The position numbers and the translations under genes were made by a program. From IMG/VR virus record IMGVR_UViG_3300024262_005036: a stretch of DNA of 12,256 bases. One strand, 5' to 3'. The DNA comes from a virus. Shown piece by piece: positions 1,498-7,405 of this stretch. The notes under the pieces are model-generated. The model saw only the letters and a list, made by a program, of their open reading frames with translations. It was not told the DNA's origin and did no database searches. Every line of letters starts with the position of its first letter. The stretch's first letter is position 1.

Positions 1498-1965
1498 ATG
1501 CCGATGCTAAGAAAACACTCTGATGATCAACTTAAACACATAAAAAGTATGATTCAAAAACAGGGTGGAGACATATCTAAGAAATTAAAAGGTGATTTGG
1601 GTGACAAATATACTGTGAACACATTGGACCATCCGATAGATTTGTCAGATAACGAACCCAACGCCAACACAAAAACAGATAAACAATTAAAAAATCTACC
1701 TAAGAATAGTTTAATAACTAAATTTGAGAAATTTAGACAATTTGAAGCCGCAACAATAAAACAACAACCTGGAGAATTAAATGTCGGTTCACACATACAA
1801 TTTGTTGATGATGAAGATAATAATTCAACACAAGGTAAAATAACTAAAAGTATAAAATCTATGTATCATGTTAAATATAAAAGTGGAATCAGAAAAGTTA
1901 AAAAGTCTGATATTAAAATAAATATTCATGGTCAAGCACAAACTAATATATCAAATTTAATTTAG
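1498..1965 (+). CDS. hypothetical K-rich protein (155 aa)
   Basis: This ORF is in the table. It is the lone plus-strand gene inside the minus-strand block and converges on the DUF4326-like gene with overlapping stop codons at 1962-1965. Its composition is normal. The antisense ORF 1554..1796 is F/L/C-rich and is rejected. Confidence 0.45.
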   Translation: MPMLRKHSDDQLKHIKSMIQKQGGDISKKLKGDLGDKYTVNTLDHPIDLSDNEPNANTKTDKQLKNLPKNSLITKFEKFRQFEAATIKQQPGELNVGSHIQFVDDEDNNSTQGKITKSIKSMYHVKYKSGIRKVKKSDIKINIHGQAQTNISNLI

Positions 1966-2264
1966 AAAGAAAATGATGGTAATTTAGGTTTTTCAATTAG
2001 TTCAACCAATATATCACCATGACAAGATTTAGGTTTACAAAAACAACCTAATCTTTTACCTTTAAGTTCGTGTAAATCATTTAATAAATCAGGACTATTT
2101 AAAATGTACTCTCTATATTTATCAATTGCCTCCTTCCTACTACTTACAATAAATTCTGCTTGTGTATTTTTATCTTTTATGTGTGTATAAGGATTACCCC
2201 ATTTACTTGGTCTTGAAATTAATACATCATATTCATCCGTTTTAATATTTACAACTGTTGTCAT
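1962..2264 (-). CDS. DUF4326-like protein. The start is taken at the internal Met MTTVVNIKTDEYDVLISRPSKWGNPY...CHGDILVE.
   Basis: The motifs SRPSKWGNPY, LGCFCKPKSCHGDIL are as I recall for the DUF4326 family of small phage and bacterial proteins. The 2264 start leaves a 22-nt gap to the upstream gene. The table start at 2339 would instead overlap that gene by 53 nt. Confidence 0.55.
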   Translation of the reverse strand: MTTVVNIKTDEYDVLISRPSKWGNPYTHIKDKNTQAEFIVSSRKEAIDKYREYILNSPDLLNDLHELKGKRLGCFCKPKSCHGDILVELIEKPKLPSFSF

Positions 2265-2286
2265 AAAATTTATAGTAAATAAATAT

Positions 2287-2664
2287 TTAATTGTTTCTAT
2301 TTGGTAATATTGGAGTGCTAATATTATCATCCAACCCAATATTAGTTTCTATCGGTTTACCGAAAGTAATAATATTTAAAGTATTTAGTTGAGATTGTTG
2401 TACTGATAATATTCTGAAAACCTGAGGTATATCTTCAGATTTGATAACATATATTTTAGTACCATTATCATCAACTTTTTTTTCTTCTAACTCTTTAATA
2501 TTAGATTTTAATCCTGAAATTTGAATTTCTTGCCAACCAAATAGAGTACTAAACACAATTACAATAATTCCTGCAATCCATATTACCATTTTCAATTTAA
2601 TTTGTATAATATTATCTTCTGAGATTATAGGCATATCATTTATTTTATTTTTATATTTTCCCAA
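2287..2664 (-). CDS. small single-pass membrane protein (125 aa)
   Basis: There is one hydrophobic helix, VIWIAGIIVIVFSTLFGW, followed by a charged coiled-coil-like segment. An alternative start at the internal Met (MPIIS, about 2634) would remove the 25-nt overlap with the upstream gene. Confidence 0.5.
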   Translation of the reverse strand: MGKYKNKINDMPIISEDNIIQIKLKMVIWIAGIIVIVFSTLFGWQEIQISGLKSNIKELEEKKVDDNGTKIYVIKSEDIPQVFRILSVQQSQLNTLNIITFGKPIETNIGLDDNISTPILPNRNN

Positions 2665-4185: not shown

Positions 4186-4261
4186 GACTACACATTACTA
4201 ATATATAAAAATATTAAGTAAAACTTTTTTTATTTAAAATAATATAGTACTTTTGTATCGG

Positions 4262-4306
4262 ATTCGAAAATGAAATGCGTTCTACCAACTGAACTACTCC
4301 CGCAAT
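4262..4306 (-). pseudogene. tRNA-like fragment: acceptor 5' strand, complete D-arm and T-loop, but no anticodon arm or 3' acceptor strand. It is either a tRNA remnant or a tRNA-mimic element.
   Basis: The minus strand reads GCGGGAG-TA-GTTC-AGTTGGTA-GAAC-G-CATTTCAT-TTCGAATCC-GATAC. The first 26 nt are a textbook tRNA positions 1-26. TTCGAATCC is the canonical T-loop with the start of the 3' T-stem. I could not fold an anticodon stem or a 5' T-stem. No CTCCCGC partner strand lies downstream. The element sits 34 nt upstream of the RNA-ligase N-ORF. Confidence 0.45.
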
Positions 4307-4339
4307 TAATTTAGTTAGAACAAAAAAAATTTTAGAATC

Positions 4340-4693
4340 ATGAGAAAATTAGCTTCAATTAGAAAAATTGGTAATCTGCAACCAATCAAAGATGCAGATA
4401 GAATTGAACTTGCAATCGTTGATGGTTGGAAAGTTGTAGTAAACAAAGGTGTTCACACTATTGGTGAATTAATTGTTTACTTTGAAATTGATTCATTGCT
4501 TCCTATTCAGGAAGAATTTGAATTCCTTAGAAAATCATCTTACAAAATGATGTCTGATGGAACCGAAGGTTTCAGATTAAAAACTATTAGACTTCGTGGC
4601 GTTTATAGTCAAGGACTTATACTACCATTAAACATATTAAATTCTTACGGAAAACTTATCGAAGAGGATGGTGAGACATTTTTTGAATTTTAA
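4340..4693 (+). CDS. RNA ligase, N-terminal OB-fold (tRNA_bind/Myf-like) domain fragment of a split DraRnl/NgrRnl-type ligase
   Basis: IRKIGNLQPIKDADRIELAIVDGWKVVV ... LKTIRLRGVYSQGLILPL matches the OB-fold tRNA-binding domain pattern found in the MetRS C-terminus, Trbp111, CsaA and EMAP-II (hPDADkL.v..VD.G...qiV ... K...RGv.SqGMLl). The DraRnl-clade N-module is, as I recall, a fold of this kind. The ORF stops at a TAA, 33 nt before the HEG. Confidence 0.65.
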   Translation: MRKLASIRKIGNLQPIKDADRIELAIVDGWKVVVNKGVHTIGELIVYFEIDSLLPIQEEFEFLRKSSYKMMSDGTEGFRLKTIRLRGVYSQGLILPLNILNSYGKLIEEDGETFFEF

Positions 4694-4725
4694 ATTTTTA
4701 TATATAGATTAAAAACAATAAAGTT

Positions 4726-5649
4726 GTGATGTTAGATATATACAAAATTTATAAAATTGAAAATATGGTCAACAATAAATTGTATGTTGGTAAAACAAAA
4801 TTATCATTAGATAAAAGATTTAAAAGACACATATACAATGCTGAAAATAAAATAAACAGATATTTGTATGATGCAATGAACCATTATGGATATGATAATT
4901 TTAAAATTGAATTATTAGAAACTTGCACAGAGGACGAGTCCAATAATAAAGAAAAATTTTTTATTAAACACTTTAATTCTAATGATAAAATGTTTGGTTA
5001 TAATATGACAAAAGGAGGTGACGGTGGAAATACTGGAAATTATCATTATGGTAAATCATTTTATGATTGGTGGCTTAAGAAATATGGTAAAAAGATTGCT
5101 GATAAAATGAAAAATGATACATATAATCTAATTTCAAAAAAATTAAAGATAATATATTCAGGTGTTTCTTTTGATGAAAGATTTGGTGATAATTCCGAAA
5201 GTGTTAAGAATAAAATTAGAAACACATTAAAAATTAAAGGACATAAACCACCAACACAATATTGGAAAGATAAAAAACATCCAATGTTAGGTAAAACACA
5301 TTCGGAAATATCTAAAAATAAAATGTCAAATTTTAGATCAGGAAAAACATATGAAGAGATATATGGTGAGGAAAAAGCAAAACAAATGAGAAAGAAAAAA
5401 TCTTTATTTTTATCAGAAAATAATCCTAATAAAAGAGAAGATTTTTCTACTAACGATAAGATATTTATATTGGAAAATATACAAAATATGACTATTAAAA
5501 TTATATCAACACACATAAATAGAAGTCCATATGAAATTAGAAAATTTTTTAGAATATTAGGAATAAAAAACATTCAAAAATTTAAAGTAGATAAAAATAT
5601 TGAAAATAAATTAATGGACTTAATTGAAAAAATAAGAAAGGAAAAATAA
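4726..5649 (+). CDS. GIY-YIG homing endonuclease with NUMOD3 DNA-binding repeats (I-TevI/Seg-like), inserted inside the RNA ligase gene
   Basis: The N-terminus carries the full GIY-YIG catalytic signature: DIYKIYKIEN...NKLYVGKT...RFKRH...KIELLE...E.FFIKHF...GYNMTKGG. Downstream, GKTHSEISKNKMS and KKHPMLGKTHSE fit NUMOD3 (GKxHSEETKxKIS). The C-terminus is basic. Confidence 0.85.
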   Translation: MMLDIYKIYKIENMVNNKLYVGKTKLSLDKRFKRHIYNAENKINRYLYDAMNHYGYDNFKIELLETCTEDESNNKEKFFIKHFNSNDKMFGYNMTKGGDGGNTGNYHYGKSFYDWWLKKYGKKIADKMKNDTYNLISKKLKIIYSGVSFDERFGDNSESVKNKIRNTLKIKGHKPPTQYWKDKKHPMLGKTHSEISKNKMSNFRSGKTYEEIYGEEKAKQMRKKKSLFLSENNPNKREDFSTNDKIFILENIQNMTIKIISTHINRSPYEIRKFFRILGIKNIQKFKVDKNIENKLMDLIEKIRKEK

Positions 5650-5651
5650 TT

Positions 5652-6350
5652 ATGAAATTAAAAATAAAAGAAGGTTTAGATTTAACGCAGATATTAAATA
5701 TTATAAAATATGAACCACCTATTCCTCCAGAATTGTCTGGTAAGGTAATTGGACAATTCCCAAGTTTCATTCGTAAAACAGATGAAGAAAGAATTCAAAA
5801 CTTTTCTGACGAATATCAAGAAATGAGAAAATTTAGATATTTCGCTTCTGAAAAACTTGATGGAACTTCATGTACTATGTACTTCAACCAAAAATTTGGC
5901 ATCTGTTCAAGAAATCTTGAATTGGCTGAAGGTGACACAACACAATGGAAACTTGCAAGAGAATTTGGTTTAATTTCTAAATTAGAAAATTTAGGACGAA
6001 ACATAGCTCTTCAAGGTGAAATAATTGGAGAAGGTATTCAGAAAAACAAATACAAATTAAAAGGACAAGAATTCAGACTTTTCAACATCTTTGATATTGA
6101 TAACTACGAATATTTACCAAAAAGCGAAATGTTAGAAATCGCAGAACAATTTTGTTTGAAAATTGTACCTACTGTTTTTGAGAATATAGAACTTCCATTA
6201 ACTATTGATGAACTTTTAGAAATTGCAGAAGGAAAGTCAGTTCTTAATACACAGACTGAAAGAGAAGGTTTAGTGTGGGTATCTGTTGACTCACCTGAAA
6301 GAATTTCCTTTAAGACAATCTCTAACAGATTTTTGTTGAAATATGAATAA
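5652..6350 (+). CDS. RNA ligase, nucleotidyltransferase (adenylyltransferase) domain fragment of the same split ligase
   Basis: Motif I YFASEKLDGTS is a KxDG lysine-adenylylation motif, with K68 encoded at 5853-5855. The downstream GEIIGEG, EGLVWV and ISFKTISNRFLLK resemble ligase motifs III, IV and V. Its own ATG lies 2 nt after the HEG stop, and an AAGGAAAAA purine tract sits inside the HEG 3' end. Confidence 0.7.
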   Translation: MKLKIKEGLDLTQILNIIKYEPPIPPELSGKVIGQFPSFIRKTDEERIQNFSDEYQEMRKFRYFASEKLDGTSCTMYFNQKFGICSRNLELAEGDTTQWKLAREFGLISKLENLGRNIALQGEIIGEGIQKNKYKLKGQEFRLFNIFDIDNYEYLPKSEMLEIAEQFCLKIVPTVFENIELPLTIDELLEIAEGKSVLNTQTEREGLVWVSVDSPERISFKTISNRFLLKYE

Positions 6351-6354
6351 TCTT

Positions 6355-6393
6355 TTGGTTGTAACTTTTAATATATAGATAGGTTACAACCAA
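6355..6393. repeat. 11-bp perfect inverted repeat TTGGTTGTAAC / GTTACAACCAA with a 17-nt spacer that contains TATATAGAT
   Basis: This is seen directly at 6355-6365 and 6383-6393. It lies immediately 3' of the ligase C-ORF stop. There is no T-run, so it is not a canonical terminator. Confidence 0.6.
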
Positions 6394-6410
6394 AAAATAA
6401 TCATAATACA

Positions 6411-6656
6411 ATGAAACATTTAAAACATATAAATGAAGAATATAAAAGTAAAGAACTCAAAAAAGGTATAAAACATGAAAAAGAGCATGATAAAACCTAT
6501 GAGAACATTAAAAAGTATTATGAAAAGAATAAAGATTTCCCAGGAAAAATGTTAATTTTTAAATGGATTGCAGAGGATCATTTGGATGATTTCAAAGATT
6601 ATTATACAAGACATAAGAAAATGGAAAAAGGTGCCAAATCAGGCGGGAAAGATTAA
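6411..6656 (+). CDS. hypothetical small basic protein (81 aa). Its C-terminal 19 aa are encoded by direct-repeat copy A.
   Basis: This ORF is in the table and is K/E/H-rich. Its 3' 58 bp (6596-6653) recur exactly at 7483-7540. Confidence 0.5.
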   Translation: MKHLKHINEEYKSKELKKGIKHEKEHDKTYENIKKYYEKNKDFPGKMLIFKWIAEDHLDDFKDYYTRHKKMEKGAKSGGKD

Positions 6657-6709
6657 TAAATAGTACTCTAATAAAGAAAAATTAATATTAACAAAAAAAT
6701 ATATATAAA

Positions 6710-7255
6710 ATGAAGCATATTAAGAAATATAATGAAAATGTATCTGAACAAAAAGAAAAACTATTTGTGCCAGATAATTTAGATGAAATATATAAAATTC
6801 TATTCTCTTCTAATGATAAAAACGAATTTAAAAAGAATCTAATAGATAACGGTTACAACAACTATGTAGCCGATTATATATTTTATGAAATTGAGGATGC
6901 CGCAGAACGAGAGTATGTTATGATCGAACAAGATAATGAATACTTAGAAAAAGAAAATAAAAAAGAAAAGTTTACACAAGCATTTATAAACTATGTAGAA
7001 AAATTAAGAAAAGATGATTTCAATAATATTCCAATATCTGATGATTTCAATAAACATGTGAAATATACAGCAGAAAATATATTTAAGTTTAGACTAAAAA
7101 AAGAGAGAGATAGAGTTGAAAATTGGGGCGGTTTCGCATTATATATAAAAGAGGGTGAATTAGATATAACAGAACATGGAGTTGAAAAAAAATATAAAAA
7201 AATATACAAAAAAACAGTTAAATATTATAATGCTGAAAACTTATTTGAGCAATAA
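6710..7255 (+). CDS. hypothetical protein (181 aa)
   Basis: This ORF is in the table. Its N-terminus MKHIKKYNEN resembles the MKHLKHINEE of the preceding ORF. A terminator lies about 100 nt downstream. Confidence 0.55.
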   Translation: MKHIKKYNENVSEQKEKLFVPDNLDEIYKILFSSNDKNEFKKNLIDNGYNNYVADYIFYEIEDAAEREYVMIEQDNEYLEKENKKEKFTQAFINYVEKLRKDDFNNIPISDDFNKHVKYTAENIFKFRLKKERDRVENWGGFALYIKEGELDITEHGVEKKYKKIYKKTVKYYNAENLFEQ

Positions 7256-7350
7256 TTATGTTATTTATTTTAACAAAATTAATTCATAGATAATAATCAT
7301 AATTATTAGTAAGAATTTTAACCAGTAATATTATTGTTTTTAAGATATAA

Positions 7351-7382
7351 AAAAGAGAATTTTTTCAAATTCTCTTTTTTAT
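7351..7382 (+). terminator. rho-independent terminator
   Basis: The stem AGAGAATTT (7354-7362) pairs with AAATTCTCT (7367-7375) around the loop TTTC, and a T-run follows at 7376-7380. Confidence 0.6.
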
Positions 7383-7405
7383 TTAAACTAATTTAAATAT
7401 TTACG

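Follow-up and report, generated by a model that had tools for sequence, protein, structure and literature searches.

A phage gene for an Rnl5-type RNA ligase split by a free-standing gene for a homing endonuclease, and a two-piece enzyme that probably still works

Introduction

Can an RNA ligase whose first catalytic step draws on residues of two domains keep working when a selfish gene divides it into two polypeptides? This question is raised by a locus at positions 4,340 to 6,350 of IMG/VR virus record IMGVR_UViG_3300024262_005036, a DNA stretch of 12,256 nucleotides (nt) that is referred to in its entirety as the window. At this locus, a gene for an RNA ligase of the Rnl5 clade is interrupted by a homing endonuclease gene (HEG) of the GIY-YIG class. 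In characterized Rnl5 ligases, the N module is dispensable for step 3, whereas ligase adenylylation and nick sealing depend on it (PMC4408790, PMC7261155, PMC1807946). A HEG-split enzyme can nevertheless work: NrdA of phage Aeh1, split by mobE, is fully active and requires its insertion-derived tails (PMC3045599). Crona et al. proposed that such tails "may represent a general mechanism" (PMC3045599), and a survey in 2023 counted "at least one instance," Aeh1 NrdA, of a HEG-split gene working as two peptides (PMC10448857). Here, we examine the ligase locus by comparison with its split and unsplit relatives. The two-piece ligase probably still works, because the same cut recurs in many uncultured phages.

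Results

Layout of the Locus

The locus consists of three consecutive plus-strand open reading frames (ORFs), 4340-4693, 4726-5649 and 5652-6350, one in each reading frame, and all three were found where the initial annotation had placed them. The features needed below are as follows (aa, amino acids; NTase, nucleotidyltransferase).

4340-4693, plus strand: N-half of the Rnl5-type ligase, 117 aa, with the OB module, a 14-aa C-terminal tail and a stop codon
~4598-5705, plus strand: foreign, putatively co-converted tract, delimited by comparison with HEG-less alleles
4649-4690, plus strand: tail of the N-half, GKLIEEDGETFFEF, 14 aa, missing in HEG-less alleles and predicted to form a beta-hairpin
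4694-4728, plus strand: spacer and HEG leader with the motif TATATAGATTAAAAACAATAAAG, which accompanies related HEGs
4729-5649, plus strand: free-standing GIY-YIG/NUMOD3 HEG, 306 aa from the ATG at 4729, identified by Pfam and by its match to I-TevI
5652-6350, plus strand: C-half of the ligase, 232 aa, with the 7-aa head MKLKIKE, the linker with the Lys121 equivalent and a complete NTase domain

The Pfam matches assign each ORF. The first matched PF21189, "PHA02142 OB-fold domain" (E = 3.7e-35), and ends with a stop codon at 4691-4693. The middle ORF, annotated from the outset as GIY-YIG plus NUMOD3, matched GIY-YIG (E = 3.6e-8) and NUMOD3 (E = 2e-4; 21.6 bits, cut-off 20.4), with a further weak match to HTH_6, and it also matched the catalytic domain of I-TevI (1mk0, E = 4e-6). 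The third matched PF09414, RNA_ligase (E = 9e-26), and begins at a new ATG at 5652, located 2 nt past the HEG stop. The HEG has two candidate starts, GTG at 4726 (307 aa) and ATG at 4729 (306 aa); the latter is most likely, judging from a 306-aa gene call in the database and from relatives that align from this residue. Non-coding sequence around the HEG is therefore limited to 32-35 nt upstream and 2 nt downstream, so that the downstream spacer first reported stands and the upstream one, given then as 33 nt, is revised. The GC content is 17-26% over the foreign tract and HEG, vs. 30-32% in the ligase halves. An assembly artefact is excluded because the identical split arrangement was recovered in three independent assemblies: ENA ERZ27249621 (70 kb), JGI 3300009149 and Logan SRR5210834.

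The Two Outer Genes as Parts of One Rnl5 Ligase

In a search of PDB sequences, the N-half aligned to residues 4-100 of NgrRnl (E = 2.5e-17) and the C-half to residues 111-337 (E = 1e-52). Residue K68 in the EKLDGTS motif of the C-half aligns with the nucleophile Lys170, in agreement with the first description of this ORF as a covalent nucleotidyltransferase with a KxDG motif. We then considered 12 active-site positions of NgrRnl whose roles have been described (PMC7261155), namely Arg4, Asp53, Lys121, Thr145, Asp146, Arg149, Lys170, Asp172, Glu227, Phe248, Glu312 and Lys326, and found all 12 conserved in the window. The equivalents of Arg4 and Asp53 are R2 and D51 of the N-half, and that of Lys121 is K19 of the C-half. 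Also on the C-half, R47, K68 and D70 align with Arg149, Lys170 and Asp172, and the E of QGE, the E of REG and the K of SFK occupy the positions of Glu227, Glu312 and Lys326.

A structure model of the two halves, concatenated into one chain, was computed with AlphaFold2 from an alignment of 105 sequences and reached a mean predicted local distance difference test score (pLDDT) of 94.8 and a predicted template-modelling score (pTM) of 0.89; it replaced a single-sequence model with a pLDDT of 31, which was discarded. The template-modelling (TM) scores of the fused model against NgrRnl structures were 0.87-0.90, at 41-42% identity, and T4 Rnl2 and Rnl1 scored far lower. The DraRnl/NgrRnl (Rnl5) architecture originally proposed is thus borne out, by the alignment of both halves to NgrRnl and by the fused model. 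The fused model also gave weak fold matches to PheRS beta, a resemblance that explains the "tRNA_bind-like" impression of the N-half in the initial annotation. The OB fold recognized there stands; the tRNA_bind family (PF01588) was rejected for this module, to which Pfam assigns PF21189, and what is left of that part of the claim is the distant resemblance to the PheRS beta fold.

Like NgrRnl and DraRnl (PMC4408790, PMC7261155, PMC1807946), the window ligase has an N-terminal OB module and a C-terminal NTase domain and, as expected of Rnl5, no C-terminal appendage, its C-terminal ORF stopping where the NTase domain ends. Every checked residue that contacts ATP or metal in NgrRnl is retained. 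On these sequence and structural matches, we assign the window ligase to the NgrRnl/DraRnl clade as a split derivative of Rnl5. Unlike the characterized members, which are single polypeptides, it is interrupted by a stop codon, a 306-aa foreign ORF and a new ATG, so that OB barrel and NTase domain are encoded as two distinct products, and its linker has ~20 additional residues.

The break maps to NgrRnl residues ~101-110, behind the OB barrel, and in the fused model it follows a surface beta-hairpin between the domains. It had been placed at the domain boundary, and it does lie near it; its exact position is within the linker of the N module and not at the boundary used for the deltaN truncation, which removes residues 1-126, as the Shuman lab assigns Lys121 to the N module (PMC7261155). 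The three N-module residues that position the gamma-phosphate of ATP and the second metal are consequently divided, with Arg4 and Asp53 on the N-half and Lys121 on the C-half. Therefore, the step-1 site would need Arg4 and Asp53 from one polypeptide and the rest from the other.

Uninterrupted Alleles and the Co-conversion Tract

In annotated phage records, tblastn matched the N-half in 334 and the C-half in 330. Those with both halves include Pseudomonas, Aeromonas and Sinorhizobium phages and cyanophages, and in the records that we opened, the two matches always fell in a single gene of ~340-370 aa, often named "RNA ligase" and once "DRB0094 family." The possibility that the two ORFs are normally separate, unrelated genes is not borne out, as ~330 annotated phage records hold both halves. 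Among the best 80 IMG/VR loci with the OB module, 75 carry an uninterrupted ORF, 2 are ended by the contig edge, 1 (L056) is split like the window and 2 (contigs L010 and L011) are broken differently. An estimate of the share of split alleles from a hit list biased toward short proteins, in which 370 candidates were scored and none was full length, was rejected.

The closest relatives of the C-half in a collection of 5.8 billion proteins are unsplit 333-aa ligases (P0122-P0128), with 79-88% aa identity. Three contigs with such alleles, L097, L098 and L099, are syntenic with the window, with a DUF4326 gene and the same small ORFs upstream, and thus supply the contiguous ligase that the initial annotation had proposed to look for in HEG-less relatives. 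By blastn, window positions 4199-4599 are 90-91% identical in nucleotides to these contigs, the sequence from ~5670/5701 onward is 85-88% identical, and ~1070-1100 nt of the window stand where the contigs have only 61-92 nt. A comparison codon by codon gave a near-perfect match up to codon 86 of the N-half (…RLRG), a chance-level match beyond it and a recovery at about codon 19 of the C-half (KYEPPIPPEL); codons 1-86 of the N-half are ~90% identical in nucleotides to the HEG-less alleles. The breakpoints from blastn agree with those from the codons. On the basis of these sharp breakpoints and of flanks ~90% identical to L097-L099, the foreign tract extends over ~4598-5705. In the uninterrupted allele, its place is taken by 96 nt (32 codons). 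The tract itself runs, in order, from 96 nt of diverged ligase sequence with the stop through the 32-nt spacer, the HEG and a further 2 nt to 54 nt of ligase sequence, likewise diverged, that starts with the ATG. A HEG-containing allele (L124) and the HEG-less L097 come from one JGI sample, 3300009149, and the two alleles therefore coexist in one community.

From this comparison of alleles, we interpret the tract as the trace of a homing event in which flanking sequence was co-converted from an already split donor allele, and insertion of the HEG by homing is very likely. The HEG-less syntenic alleles and the co-conversion tract corroborate the view that a free-standing HEG has fractured the ligase gene. 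The earlier reading, in which a free-standing GIY-YIG HEG broke an Rnl5 ligase gene at the linker, is therefore supported by the sequence comparison, with the addition that the insertion appears also to have imported diverged ligase-coding flanks, the tail and the head.

Recurrence of the Same Junction

The order N-half, endonuclease gene, C-half was confirmed at nine further loci (L013, L014/L015, L016, L056, L114, L120, L121 and the P0100 and P0089 contigs), and the P0016 contig holds the N-half and a GIY-YIG gene before it ends. An endonuclease gene follows the N-half directly in every context that could be retrieved. In the 11 loci made up of these ten and P0296 (described below), the endonuclease is of the GIY-YIG type in 10 and of the LAGLIDADG/AP2 type in 1 (L013). 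At all eight junctions read, the window included, the ATG of the C-half lies at one alignment column (MK..K/L.E.G.D.T) and overlaps or abuts the endonuclease stop, as ATGA, as a longer overlap or across a 2-nt gap.

Identity of the window ligase to unsplit alleles is 79-88%, against only 50-59% to the C-halves of other split loci; on these values, the split state appears not to be monophyletic on the ligase tree. The HEGs are only 32-56% identical among themselves. The nearest relatives of the window HEG, 49-53% identical (53% for the nearest), likewise lie inside split ligases (L056, L121).

Several loci show variants of this arrangement. The most divergent split ligase, L114:11663-13835, has a LAGLIDADG/HTH ORF directly downstream of its C-half (L114:10799-11620, minus strand), that is, a second endonuclease gene at the locus. 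In P0296 (523 aa, on a 3-kb Logan contig), a related endonuclease of the GIY-YIG/NUMOD3 type continues in frame into a ligase C-half (…IENLS-MNLLKDEFAVDSILGIQKWEAP…); either the HEG stop has been lost or both are read as one ORF. The N-half variant P0095 (115 aa) joins the OB module to the last ~20 residues of the NTase domain by an internal deletion, and the variants P0102 and P0068 diverge past ...SQGL in a frameshift-like manner; these three are possibly degraded ligase alleles. The neighbors of split ligases include further genes for RNA repair or RNA modification, among them a T4 Rnl1-like ligase in L014 (L014:6347-7429), a gene of the Thg1 family in the P0016 contig and one for a SpoU methylase in the P0089 contig.

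Tail, Head and Leader of the Cassette

In the window's own lineage, the linker of the HEG-less alleles is short, …VLPAGVPIIEGEDVT, and shows nothing that corresponds to either the tail or the head. Neither GKLIEEDGETFFEF nor MKLKIKE has a counterpart in the unsplit L098 and L006, and the other split loci likewise carry tail and head residues foreign to their uninterrupted homologs. Judged from these alignments, the ~20 residues of tail and head arrived with the cassette. The tail was modelled as a beta-hairpin (strands 106-109 and 112-115, pLDDT 84-87), and a short strand of the head follows the break. A long-linker class of unsplit ligases (L018, L053, L066 and L094), with the linker …GDEMMIGISEQPSGPQLQLGPYDNALVIEEGADVT, aligns strand for strand with tail plus head. 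We infer that the first insertion occurred in the loop of the mini-sheet of such a long-linker ligase and that the junction later travelled with the HEG.

Many stand-alone proteins in the database, of ~117-125 aa, carry PF21189 only. The 32 such N-halves that we aligned are intact, with the Arg4 equivalent invariant, and end within a few residues of one column; their conserved tails are either TGGKIIEKNGKLILIY and stop or the window-type YGKLIEE..g..F/Y.. and stop. They represent at least 31 N-half clusters other than that of the window, from which they have diverged to 53-70% identity. The L114 locus separates tail from core: its ligase core is 33-46% identical to the others, whereas its tail shares 64-80% identity with the tails of L013, L014 and L056. 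When IMG/VR was scanned with the back-translated tail motif, 20 stretches matched, only L114 being a real split ligase.

In the window, L014, L056 and L121, related HEGs have the leader motif TATATA[GA].ATAAAAAC.AT.AG..T-ATG directly before their start. At L122, the motif again lies directly upstream of the start of a HEG, which there is intergenic, beside a non-Rnl5 ligase. The leader may be a promoter or a translation-initiation region. A fold computed for it showed no significant hairpin (z = 0.09), a sigma-70 scan of it was no better than chance, and a HEG-specific promoter motif was not enriched in the window. The GIY-YIG HEG of L122 (L122:1394-3430) is 48% identical to that of the window and lies downstream of a 344-aa PF09414 ligase with the motif TVKLHG and no match to either window half. 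Because this neighboring ligase is not of the Rnl5 type, L122 was rejected as an "intergenic ancestor" of the insertion.

A Two-Piece Ligase or a Broken One

The explanation that we consider probable as a whole, a homing HEG that split the ligase and halves that reassemble, runs as follows. A free-standing GIY-YIG HEG entered, by homing, the linker of a gene for an Rnl5-type nick-sealing RNA ligase, and repair of the double-strand break copied the HEG together with ~96 nt of upstream and 54 nt of downstream diverged ligase sequence from a donor allele already split before the transfer. With the imported DNA came a stop after the 14-aa tail, the AT-rich leader that precedes the HEG, and the ATG that opens the 7-aa head. 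The ligase is thus now encoded in two ORFs: an N-half comprising the OB barrel and the residues Arg4 and Asp53, which contact the gamma-phosphate of ATP, and a C-half comprising Lys121 and the entire NTase domain with its nucleophile Lys170. The C-half would be translated from an ATG of its own, probably in coupling with the HEG. The two polypeptides would reassemble non-covalently, aided by tail and head, and rebuild the composite step-1 (lysine adenylylation) site, which would make the insertion nearly neutral for the phage. The cassette of tail, stop, leader, HEG, start and head would be a mobile unit in several divergent Rnl5 lineages.

Reassembly and activity of the halves are what we infer from sequence, and functional reassembly seems to us fairly probable. 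Outside the foreign tract, the ratio of nonsynonymous to synonymous substitutions (dN/dS) against HEG-less alleles is 0.10-0.15 for the N-half and 0.12-0.14 for the C-half; the baseline between unsplit alleles is 0.10-0.12, and no relaxation was detectable. The catalytic residues are also kept, with minor exceptions, in five other split loci. A further idea is put forward only tentatively: that a portable "split-junction" module, composed of the beta-hairpin tail and stop, the leader, the HEG, and the start codon and beta-strand head, is co-converted into invaded Rnl5 alleles and supplies the protein-protein glue for the fractured enzyme.

Several observations weigh against a working two-piece enzyme. 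The insertion in the window may be recent, as HEG-less alleles 88% identical to it coexist with it, and pairwise dN/dS therefore has little power to reveal relaxation after the split. The L114 ligase has no Arg4 equivalent and carries the substitutions K121H and R149N, and L013 and L016 carry D146N; some split copies, L114 among them, may be decaying. The split state is a minority, with 3 of the 80 best IMG/VR relatives broken, and no split locus lacking a HEG was present among the 11 other loci examined. The charge complementarity between tail and head, as in NrdA, is inconsistent across loci, and the structure model is of a fused chain and says nothing on association in trans.

The strongest rival explanation accepts the HEG insertion and holds that the ligase has been inactivated, its halves being as yet undegraded or the C-half retaining only a partial activity, the step-3 sealing of nicks that are already adenylylated; the arrangement would persist through a self-driving HEG and a dispensable ligase. 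It accounts for the possibly recent insertion in a sample with 88%-identical HEG-less alleles, for the active-site substitutions of L114, for the internal deletion of P0095 and for the HEG still present in every split locus. It is also compatible with the biochemistry, since an NTase domain by itself still performs step 3 while being defective in both adenylylation and the sealing of nicks (PMC4408790, PMC7261155), and DraRnl is reported to be inessential for growth (PMC5397189). Inactivation does not readily account for at least 31 other diverged N-halves that are intact, with an invariant Arg4 equivalent and a common end point, nor for C-halves only 46-65% identical to each other that keep their catalytic residues and start position. 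Between distant lineages the tail is better conserved than the core, which is unexpected for junk, and dN/dS is 0.10-0.15. We therefore consider inactivation unlikely, and prefer a ligase whose two halves reassemble.

The second rival explanation places the HEG in a self-splicing group I intron, after whose removal, as in HEG-separated genes of phage ICP1, the mRNA would encode a single-chain ligase. GIY-YIG enzymes such as I-TevI are classically intron-encoded, several database relatives of the HEG bear the JGI label "group I intron endonuclease," the same site is taken by a LAGLIDADG gene in L013, and HEG-separated gene fragments of ICP1 are indeed spliced (PMC10448857). However, the tail is conserved as a peptide with a fixed stop in 32 sequences, and the ATG of the C-half stands at one column by the HEG stop, neither of which an intron would need. 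No more than ~100 nt lie outside the HEG ORF, even with tail and head counted. Rfam searches gave no Intron_gpI or gpII match in the whole window (E ≤ 1), in 4500-5800 (E ≤ 10) or in eight other loci (E ≤ 1). A group I intron was rejected on these negative Rfam searches, on the leader without significant structure (z = 0.09) and on the lack of space for a P3-P9 core, in accordance with the original view that too little non-coding sequence is present for an intron; splicing at this locus is highly improbable.

The weakest rival, that tail and head are a miniature split intein or its remnants and that the halves are joined by protein trans-splicing, can be dismissed with near certainty for the window, although "fractured genes" of that kind are known (PMC2677866), a degenerate intein was considered by Crona et al. 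as a possible origin of the NrdA tails (PMC3045599) and ligases of the same family in L010/L011 are broken elsewhere by a genuine-looking split intein, since neither window half matched a Hint/intein domain in Pfam, the tail (14 aa) and head (7 aa) are far too short, and the splice-junction residues are missing, with neither Cys nor Ser where the tail begins and no His-Asn before a Cys, Ser or Thr where the head ends.

The L010 locus is of interest in its own right. At L010:4132-6564 (the same as L028; also in L011/L030), an Rnl5 ligase is broken after ...FPSFISKTDEVR, before motif I. The split-intein-like pieces are an N-fragment CLSEET...TGNHRIW and a C-fragment ending in ...NGVLVHN/C, both matched by Pfam Intein_splicing, and a 322-aa Vsr/DUF7487-like endonuclease ORF lies between them. 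From its sequence, this locus appears to be what Dassa et al. (2009) termed a "fractured gene," and its host gene is absent from their list. The contig also encodes a GOLLD RNA (330 bits), a tmRNA (97 bits, minus strand) and at least eight tRNAs in an array, and its RNA features are located as follows.

L010, 578-1908, 10488-10887 and 11705-12097: RNA features of the GOLLD/tmRNA/tRNA contig

Other Features of the Window

ARAGORN found no tRNA in the window, the Rfam scan gave neither an intron nor any further credible RNA family there, and megablast gave no match for the whole window in annotated phages. A tRNA-like fragment, GCGGGAGTAGTTCAGTTGGTAGAACGC...TTCGAATCC, occurs at 4257-4306 (minus strand), just upstream of the N-half; it has the 5' acceptor strand, D-arm and T-loop but lacks the anticodon arm and 3' acceptor strand, is not called by ARAGORN or Rfam, and lies in a region conserved in L097 and L098. 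Further upstream, 1962-2339 (minus strand) encodes a DUF4326 protein (E = 5e-22) whose position is conserved in the HEG-less L097, L098 and L099.

Downstream of the ligase, an 807-aa ORF at 7686-10109 resembles the eukaryotic major vault protein (MVP_shoulder, E = 3e-28; Vault_3, 2e-8), and the segment of ~6350-10100 containing it is missing from the related contig L097. A 65-nt direct repeat at 6596-6660 and 7483-7547 (97% identical, spacing 887 nt) codes for ...DYYTRHKKMEKGAKSGGKD at the ends of two ORFs. Its copies flank ~6485-7510, including the ORF 6710-7255, a segment that L099 is without and that looks like a repeat-mediated insertion or deletion.

Discussion

The locus is a HEG-fragmented "gene in pieces" with insertion-derived tails, of the kind known from Aeh1 NrdA/mobE and probably also from T4 gp39/gp60/mobA. 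The closest precedent is Aeh1 nrdA-a/mobE/nrdA-b (Friedrich, 2007; Crona et al., 2011, PMC3045599), so the analogy first drawn with it was apt. In both, the HEG overlaps or abuts the downstream fragment, the fragments have extra terminal tails brought by the insertion and missing from uninterrupted homologs, and GC content dips over the HEG. The differences are that the host enzyme is a ribonucleotide reductase in Aeh1 and an Rnl5 RNA ligase here; that the HEG is HNH there and GIY-YIG here (LAGLIDADG in one locus); and that the break lies inside a barrel there and in an interdomain linker here. Furthermore, Aeh1 is a single genome, whereas the same junction was found here in at least 12 loci with divergent host-gene lineages, and HEG-less alleles from the same sample define the co-conversion tract. 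Activity of the halves and the role of the tails were demonstrated for Aeh1; here, both are predicted from sequence.

The "fractured genes" of Dassa et al. (2009; PMC2677866) are similar in that a free-standing HEG separates gene parts that remain in order, mostly in phages from the environment, and that gene-control elements were imported with the HEG (PMC2677866). They differ in their inteins, as the window has none and thus no repair at the protein level by trans-splicing. In the same study, an SbcD-like gene was fractured without an intein and had extra termini of 25 aa and 9 aa, and no RNA ligase was among the host genes (PMC2677866). T4 gp39/gp60 with mobA is likewise a HEG-associated split enzyme with tail-like extensions on both polypeptides (PMC3045599), although its host gene is another one and gene 60 has a 50-nt translational bypass. 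T4 td/I-TevI and the tape measure protein (TMP) and terminase genes of ICP1 (PMC10448857) also have a HEG between the pieces of one gene, and the catalytic domain of the window HEG is related to that of I-TevI. Unlike these intron-borne HEGs, that of the window has no detectable intron core, nor space for one, and both pieces of the gene are complete ORFs with a stop and start of their own.

In the full-text literature that we searched, which subscription journals mostly lie outside, no split, fragmented or interrupted RNA ligase has been described. This agrees with the impression, recorded in the initial annotation, that such a ligase was new, without proving it; the locus itself is not unique, as the cassette recurs. 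What appears to be new is the set of natural replicates, the co-conversion tract resolved to the codon with both alleles in one sample, and the seemingly portable junction.

The locus offers a second host enzyme for the idea of insertion-derived tails and, in its natural replicates, one tail/head pair that rides with different endonucleases into divergent ligases. As the step-1 site of Rnl5 uses residues of both the OB module and the NTase domain, it asks whether assembly in trans works. For annotation, it means that phage metagenome proteins named "PHA02142 OB-fold" (stand-alone, ~120 aa) and "RNA ligase" (~235 aa) should be taken as the two parts of one enzyme. If the tentative module is real, the split junction would be a third route by which selfish elements become neutral in genes, beside RNA splicing and protein splicing; the ligase lineages, as low as 33-36% identical, would constitute a natural replicated experiment; and the tail/head pair would be a candidate for a natural protein-complementation tag.

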